Shown here piece after piece: positions 2,442-3,376 of a DNA stretch of 7,460 bases. Origin of the DNA: a virus (taxonomy: Duplodnaviria > Heunggongvirae > Uroviricota > Caudoviricetes); IMG/VR virus record IMGVR_UViG_2693429524_000001, positions 1 through 7,460 of that record; one strand, written 5' to 3'. Position 1 is the stretch's first letter. Every line of letters begins with the position of its first letter. Under the pieces are notes generated by a model that saw nothing but the letters and a program-made list of their open reading frames with translations, had not been told where the DNA came from and ran no database searches. The position numbers were made by a program, and so were the translations under genes.

Positions 2442-3376
2442 AAATCCACCCCGTAAATCCAGTCAGTGTTTGTCAGGTCGAGTTTTGGTTTTCCAGCTGT
2501 CACGCCAGCCTGTTGCTTGTTACGGTTGATTTCGAGTTGGGCCCACTTGTCGCGGAGTTTGGCCGGACTTAGCACGTTACCGGACCAGAAGTTGTCCTGG
2601 CATGCCCAGCGGAACAGCACGCACATGTCGCGGTGGTTACGTCCGTCACGTTCACGCATCAGGCGGATATCGTTAGCCCACCCTGCAAAATTCGGTTTTC
2701 TGGCTGATGGTGCGATGGTCTTCACCATGTCAAACATCCACTCTGCGGCGGTCAGGTCTTCTGCTGTTCCCCACTTGCTGCCGCTCTGAATTGCAGCATC
2801 CGGTTTAACCACAGAAAGATCGTTTTCTGGCTGGTCAGAGGATTCGCCAGAATTCTCTGACGAATAATCTTTTCTTTTTTCTTTTGTAATAGTGTCTTTT
2901 GTGTCCCCCTGTTTTGAGGGATAGCAATCCCCTAATTTGAGGGATGTTTTATCCCTCGTTTTAGGGGATTTTCCCTCGTTTTGAGGGATGTCCCTCATTT
3001 TAGGGGAACCTCCCTCGTTTTGAGGGATGCACCATTCTGGGATGTTTTTATTTGGTCCAAACATGCCGCCTTGCTGCTTGATAATATTCATTCTGACGAG
3101 TTCTAACTTGGCTTCATTGCACCGTTTGACAGGTAACTTTGTAATCTCGCTAAGTTGAGAATCGGTGATTCTGTCCATTGGTTTATTCCACCCATAGGTT
3201 TTACGCAGAATGGCAAGCAGCACTTTAAACTGTCGCTTGGTCAGATCTGCGCCTGAATAAGCCTCAATCAGCATATTTGATAGTCTGGCGTAACCATCAT
3301 CGAGATCTGCCACATTACGCTCCTGTTCGGCAAAGTTACCTCTGCCGAAGTTGAGTATTTTTGCTGTATTTGTCAT
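2438..3376 (-). CDS. O: Replication initiator O (iteron-binding), 312 aa
   Basis: Product MTNTAKILNFGRGNFAEQERNVADLDDGYARLSNML... matches lambda O. The iteron array lies inside the coding sequence. SD AGGAG sits upstream of the ATG at 3376. It is about 13 aa longer than lambda O (299 aa, from memory), with extra residues in the iteron-encoded linker (IPQNEGGSPKMRDIPQNEGKSPK). Confidence 0.9.
   Translation of the reverse strand: MTNTAKILNFGRGNFAEQERNVADLDDGYARLSNMLIEAYSGADLTKRQFKVLLAILRKTYGWNKPMDRITDSQLSEITKLPVKRCNEAKLELVRMNIIKQQGGMFGPNKNIPEWCIPQNEGGSPKMRDIPQNEGKSPKTRDKTSLKLGDCYPSKQGDTKDTITKEKRKDYSSENSGESSDQPENDLSVVKPDAAIQSGSKWGTAEDLTAAEWMFDMVKTIAPSARKPNFAGWANDIRLMRERDGRNHRDMCVLFRWACQDNFWSGNVLSPAKLRDKWAQLEINRNKQQAGVTAGKPKLDLTNTDWIYGVDL
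2861..3027. other. Origin of replication (ori-lambda type): iteron array plus adjacent A/T-rich region, embedded in O
   Basis: Iteron-like 17-19 bp elements of the form TCCCTC-N5-GAGGGA starting at about 2904, 2928, 2952, 2972, 2991 and 3011. An A/T-rich stretch (2861-2903, CGAATAATCTTTTCTTTTTTCTTTTGTAATAGTG) lies on the O-downstream side, as in ori-lambda. Confidence 0.8.
2904..3027. repeat. Six tandem ori iterons, each with internal dyad symmetry, spaced 19-24 bp
   Basis: Direct reading: tccccctgttttgaggga, tcccctaatttgaggga, tccctcgttttagggga, tccctcgttttgaggga, tccctcattttagggga, tccctcgttttgaggga. Confidence 0.8.

Follow-up and report, generated by a model that had tools for sequence, protein, structure and literature searches.

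When an induced Stx prophage replicates, the dosage of stx and the output of toxin rise, which makes the origin from which this replication starts medically relevant. The closest described origins are those of the Stx phages 933W and P27. It was reported that the origins of Stx phages contain six iterons in comparison to the four of lambda, and that their O protein is longer by 13 amino acids (Kozlowska et al. 2020; PMC7466680). This six-iteron origin has already been characterised in 933W and P27 by EMSA, footprinting and synonymous mutagenesis of the iterons (PMC7466680). Every iteron was individually bound by O in EMSA, and in DMS footprints strong protection was seen at the four AT-proximal iterons only, the two AT-distal ones being not clearly protected (PMC7466680). 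These two distal iterons are thus weakly footprinted yet genetically required: synonymous mutations in either iteron 1 or iteron 1' abolished transformation by a P27-derived plasmid, which fell from ~5e4 to <10 transformants per microgram, and the authors stated that the mutated positions are synonymous and leave O unaltered (PMC7466680). Stx-type O proteins bound the iterons more weakly than lambda O, host-factor dependence differed between the Stx-type and lambda systems, and in EMSA lambda O and Stx O proteins each bound both four- and six-iteron origins (PMC7466680). The marks of Stx-type O proteins are Gly17Glu and Leu37Ile, together with Ser282Gly in 933W (lambda numbering; PMC7466680). 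The original comparison is credited, as far as the account in PMC7466680 goes, to Nejman et al. (2009). The GenBank record of 933W (AF125520) carries six O-binding features, "ori iteron 1-6", at positions homologous to those described below, and priority for the six-iteron layout before 2009 rests on the annotation of this record alone.

Anatomy of the six-iteron origin

The window, by which we mean the whole stretch of 7460 bp that was analysed, has the organisation of a lambdoid early region, its rightward operon being encoded on the minus strand. Our analysis indicates, with a probability of about 95%, that the region between cII and P contains a lambdoid prophage origin, located where gene O codes for the linker and having the six-iteron form of the Stx phages 933W and P27. 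The elements of this origin and its two replication genes are as follows.

2438..3376, minus strand: gene O, replication initiator of 312 aa, which holds the origin (ORF list; Pfam Phage_rep_O)
3011..3028, minus strand: first iteron in the O sense, at the AT-distal end, ATCCCTCAAAACGAGGGA; identical to lambda ITN1; 28.5 bits; "ori iteron 1" of 933W
2991..3008, minus strand: iteron 1', TTCCCCTAAAATGAGGGA; found in the Stx type only, without a lambda counterpart; 20.3 bits
2972..2989, minus strand: third iteron in the O sense; a second copy of lambda ITN1; 28.5 bits
2952..2969, minus strand: fourth iteron in the O sense, ATCCCCTAAAACGAGGGA; identical to lambda ITN2; 25.8 bits
2928..2945, minus strand: fifth iteron in the O sense, 3*, ATCCCTCAAATTAGGGGA; lambda ITN3 with one base changed; 24.4 bits
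2905..2922, minus strand: sixth iteron in the O sense, ATCCCTCAAAACAGGGGG; identical to lambda ITN4; adjoins the AT-rich tract; 25.8 bits
2952..3029, minus strand: tandem duplication of a 39-bp unit made of two iterons and their spacers, one copy being the insertion relative to lambda
2862..2904, minus strand: AT-rich tract, the presumed unwinding region; the same as in lambda and 933W (alignment)
2834..2861, no strand assigned: right-hand ori palindrome with an EcoRI site, GTCAGAGGATTC / GAATTCTCTGAC
1740..2441, minus strand: gene P, which encodes the partner of O that loads the helicase (Pfam Phage_lambda_P; PF06992, E=1.9e-61)

The names iteron 1' and 3*, as well as the weak footprint of iteron 1' and its need in the plasmid assay, come from PMC7466680. 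A search of the window for TCCCTC-N5-GAGGGA, allowing as many as 3 mismatches, found six clustered matches, starting at 2905, 2928, 2952, 2972, 2991 and 3011. Two of them were free of mismatches, and all six fell within 124 bp (2905-3028) at regular spacing, inside gene O; the lone additional match in the 7460 bp, at 3901, was unrelated to the array. Each iteron is an 18-bp imperfect inverted repeat. A weight matrix built from the four annotated iterons of lambda alone (NC_001416, 39034-39118) likewise gave exactly six strong matches on the minus strand, scoring from 20.3 to 28.5 bits, as compared to a maximum of 19.0 bits and a mean maximum of 10.4 bits in 200 shuffles of the window. Four of the six iterons are identical to lambda iterons, and iteron 1' fits the lambda consensus most poorly. 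A scan of the window against Rfam at gathering thresholds found no family.

These results agree with an earlier sequence-only reading, which had recognised a lambda-type origin with six such elements, and this core view is also consistent with the literature on Stx phages (PMC7466680). The spacings it had given (24, 24, 20, 19 and 20 bp) were right for the last four, and the first is 23 bp, so that the start-to-start distances from low to high coordinate are 23, 24, 20, 19 and 20. The span it had assigned to the origin, 2861-3376, extends from the AT-rich tract to the start codon of O, and the iterons themselves occupy 2905-3028 of it.

The surroundings of the array are those of a lambda-type origin. 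Directly downstream of the last iteron in the O sense the GC content falls to 0.225 (22%) at 2860-2899, and beyond the AT-rich tract lies the palindrome at 2834-2861, an inverted repeat with 12-nt arms that are 92% complementary. The O protein contains the Phage_rep_O domain (PF04492) at residues 22-115 (E=1e-34), and P is encoded directly downstream of O, its start overlapping the O stop at 2438-2441. The window therefore holds the sequence features of a lambda-type O/P replicon, namely the Phage_rep_O domain, iterons of the lambda consensus, the AT-rich tract with its palindrome, and P. It also holds the sequence features of the six-iteron subtype of Stx phages: the in-frame insertion of 39 bp, the spacing, the 13 additional residues in O and the marker residues. 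No evidence opposing the six-iteron reading was found in the sequence. Binding of the iterons by O and O/P-dependent replication have been published for the identical array of 933W and P27 (PMC7466680).

The 39-bp duplication and the O protein

Tandem Repeats Finder reported at 2952-3029 a repeat with a period of 39 bp, 2.0 copies and 89% matches, and a second repeat finder also found the 39-bp unit twice at 2952-3029; the identity given by both tools was 89-90%, the two copies being mismatched at 4 of the 39 positions. When the region was aligned with the lambda origin (NC_001416), which has four iterons as the sequence-only reading had stated, the sole structural difference was one gap of 39 columns, in frame. 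Since the extra iterons sit in the coding sequence of O, the protein is longer by 13 residues, with 312 aa here and 299 aa in lambda. The lengths proposed beforehand were therefore correct, and so was the placing of the extra length in a duplicated segment of the iteron-encoded linker: in the protein alignment the 13 residues form a single linker block, IPQNEGGSPKMRD beside IPQNEGKSPKTRD, which directly follows the Phage_rep_O domain ending at residue 115. The third iteron repeats the first exactly, so that there are two equivalent placements of the 39-bp gap, as was also remarked in PMC7466680. The extra pair relative to lambda, as judged from the alignment, is the one at the AT-distal end, 2991-3028, which derives from the 39-bp duplication. 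Suspicion had earlier fallen on two other elements, at about 2904 and 2928, as divergent and possibly non-functional extras. However, these correspond to lambda ITN4, to which the former is identical, and to lambda ITN3, from which the latter differs by one base; their spacing is 23-24 bp, and they lie beside the AT-rich tract, at the end opposite to the additional pair.

Apart from the additional 39-bp unit, to which the surplus of two iterons and 13 residues is due, the likeness to lambda is close. ITN1, ITN2 and ITN4 of lambda are identical to iterons of the window and ITN3 is 1 nt off, and the two origins, both of which lie within O, have the same AT-proximal spacing of 20/24/23, the same palindrome and the same AT-rich tract. 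Outside the 13-aa insertion the O proteins are 98% identical (97% in the N-terminal domain), and the P proteins are 97% identical. The residues E17, I37 and G295 (lambda position 282) of the window O are of the Stx type.

The likeness to 933W (AF125520 / NC_000924) is closer still. The two are identical base for base, including the spacing, all the way from the first iteron to the end of the AT-rich tract. The O protein of 933W likewise has 312 aa, and it shares the 13-aa insertion as well as E17, I37 and G295. Over gene O the DNA identity is 99.7%, with three base differences. One of these brings the right-hand palindrome (2834-2861) back to its lambda form: the palindrome of the window is that of lambda, and 933W has, in one arm, C where lambda has A. 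The other two alter O, giving S113P (codon 113, window 3040) and T279A (codon 279, window 2542), and both leave the iterons untouched. S113P falls on the border of the Phage_rep_O domain, just ahead of the linker that the iterons encode, and T279A belongs to the C-terminal domain. Both changes were absent from 933W, from lambda and from each of the 40 IMG/VR loci with six iterons that were compared; the exact O protein of the window was found in 11 public contigs.

Occurrence of the array and role of the AT-distal iterons

The six-iteron origin is widespread. At an identity of at least 90%, O was found in 167 phage records, mostly of Stx1 and Stx2 phages. A 96-nt probe spanning the duplication matched in one piece, at an identity of at least 99%, in 72 phage records, and it matched in a split, lambda-like form in 65. 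The six-iteron array was also present, at an identity of at least 99%, in some 359 records of complete E. coli genomes. The carriers in databases are mostly Stx phages. Iterons were also counted in 82 close O loci, comprising 80 from IMG/VR (of roughly 585 IMG/VR relatives of O), 933W and lambda: 42 had six iterons (spacing 20, 19, 20, 24 and 23) and 40 had four (20, 24 and 23), and counts of five, seven or eight were not found among them. In all 42 six-iteron loci both 39-bp copies remained symmetrical as inverted repeats and were phased at exactly 20/19/20. The same array without the 39 bp is present in phage 21 and in many relatives of lambda. One IMG/VR locus, IMGVR_UViG_2698536618_000022, carries a natural variant of iteron 1', TTCTCCTAAAATGAGGGA, whose change falls on a position that, along with one other, was mutated in p27mut1', the replication-dead plasmid (PMC7466680); this variant may be a natural test of the weight of that base.

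A mechanism for this origin can be outlined from established lambda biology and from PMC7466680, to which the window adds the anatomy, the identity to 933W and intact O and P genes. Dimers of O would attach to the iterons by the N-terminal domain and form an O-some by bending or wrapping the DNA. On supercoiled DNA the neighbouring AT-rich tract would be destabilised and open, and the C-terminal domain of O would recruit P bound to DnaB, with host chaperones then releasing the helicase. The four AT-proximal iterons (2905-2989) would form the strongly occupied core, and the two AT-distal ones (2991-3028) would be bound weakly, yet be required. The distal pair probably stabilises the O-some or raises the local concentration of O, which would serve the weaker-binding O proteins of the Stx type.

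The replicon specificity of this origin should be lambda-like. The sequence-only reading had suggested that the number of iterons might alter it, and there is no sign of a new specificity because the iteron sequences and the N-terminal domain of O (97% identical) are lambda-type and because the O proteins of the two types cross-bind in the published assays (PMC7466680). A distinct specificity was thus rejected as an account of the array, whose iterons are those of lambda and which phage 21 and lambda relatives match except for the 39 bp.

Several other explanations of the six iterons were weighed. Chance or an assembly artefact can be discarded. The TCCCTC-N5-GAGGGA pattern with 3 mismatches is admittedly loose, being expected 2.35 times per window, and 2 of 200 shuffles reached seven matches. 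However, a chance origin does not account for six matches in 124 bp with regular spacing and two free of mismatches, nor for weight-matrix scores above those of every shuffle, and in public collections the same array recurs in dozens of phages that were sequenced independently of one another, as well as in complete genomes by the hundreds. The extra pair could also be a neutral duplication, generated by replication slippage and hitchhiking in a successful lineage, with only the four lambda-equivalent iterons mattering. The lack of clear footprints on the AT-distal pair would fit with this, as would the report that lambda grows normally with three iterons and that two are enough in vitro (PMC7466680). 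Furthermore, the six-iteron loci are closely related, with 94-99% identity in O, and since this holds for all of them their conservation is weak evidence for selection. On the other hand, the two copies have diverged at 4 positions while the symmetry and the 20/19/20 phasing were kept in 42 of 42 loci, and synonymous disruption of iteron 1 or 1' kills transformation by the P27 plasmid (PMC7466680). It is because of this published mutagenesis that we regard neutrality as unlikely. Changes in O as a confounder of those experiments were considered and rejected, as the mutations are synonymous according to the authors (PMC7466680).

Selection might instead have acted on the protein, the 13 residues lengthening the linker between the DNA-binding and P-binding domains and the DNA sites being a by-product. 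The insertion is in frame and directly follows the Phage_rep_O domain, and the authors of PMC7466680 suggested that the extra residues of O act as a spatial barrier that loosens packing of the O-some. However, coding does not explain inverted-repeat units at the DNA level, O binds every one of the sites in vitro, and plasmids with synonymous changes, whose O is preserved, no longer replicate (PMC7466680). As the sole cause of the duplication, a protein-level effect is therefore very unlikely, although a role of this kind can coexist with a six-iteron origin in which the distal sites are themselves required. A more speculative extension of that origin, to which we give a low likelihood but a somewhat higher one than to neutral duplication, is that the AT-distal iterons are no structural part of the O-some and form a regulatory module, for example a low-affinity reservoir for O or a sensor of the rightward transcription that passes through ori. 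Such a module would lower the dependence of Stx-type replicons on transcriptional activation and on the DnaA of the host, and in the lineage of the window S113P and T279A might retune it further. If true, this would refine a known system and would not define a new kind.

The early region and relation to other origins of the O family

In reverse orientation, the window corresponds to the whole of contig CYFD01000106.1 (assembly GCA_001284405.1). It ends in the nin region, and the longest contig with the same O (11.5 kb) stops short of the late region. The other genes of the early region are as follows.

1453-1743, minus strand: ren
3409-3705, minus strand: cII
3811-3996, minus strand: cro, P22-type (PF14549, 61 aa)
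4077-4727, plus strand: cI, 216 aa, a repressor with HTH and S24-peptidase domains
5041-5313, plus strand: N
5330-5911, minus strand: sieB

The immunity region of 933W differs from that of the window, where Cro is of the P22 type and cI has 216 aa, as in VT1-Sakai, and VT1-Sakai is also the best overall match to the window. This immunity module (3811-4727) is unlike that of lambda or 933W, yet it is joined to lambda-type cII, O and P. For cII, the mechanical ORF list gives 126 aa (3409-3789); a 97-aa form, at 3409-3702 plus the stop, is backed by Pfam Phage_CII and by the gene calls on identical contigs. Downstream of sieB, a 149-aa ORF (6055-6504, plus strand) has no Pfam family on record, and its hydrophobic look by eye suggests a membrane protein. 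Between ren and the nin genes there is a 97-aa ORF (1104-1397, minus strand), at the position of which a 92-aa gene with a Phage_phiTE_015 match (PF26207) is called on identical contigs. When the whole window was searched against phage records and complete E. coli genomes, no record covered more than ~71% of it in one place; the early region is thus a mosaic that is unrepresented as a whole in those collections. These mosaic flanks have no bearing on the origin.

The plan of the origin extends well beyond the close relatives of lambda. In P22 (gene 18), HK97, g341c, SEN22 and phage 3W the iterons are also within the initiator gene, directly after the Phage_rep_O domain, and are also followed by an A-rich tract. 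Four of these five distant origins (P22 gene 18, HK97, g341c and SEN22) have four iterons at 20/24/23 with wholly different sequences, and the fifth, phage 3W, has five iterons with a spacing of 29, 19, 24 and 23. For instance, the iterons of HK97 read ATTAGCC..GGCTAA and those of SEN22 TGTCAC..GTGACA; such differences in sequence imply different specificities. Several distant origins of the O family have DnaB-like or primase-helicase partners instead of P. In HK225, a 31-nt repeat is present in three overlapping copies with 21-bp spacing. Taken together with the counts of four or six among the close relatives of O, the distant four-iteron origins lead us to regard four iterons as the conserved plan and the six-iteron array as a variant of it that recurs. 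The six-iteron origin and the O protein that is longer by 13 residues are already known, and the window, with an iteron array identical to that of 933W, is on the evidence of its sequence another copy of them.
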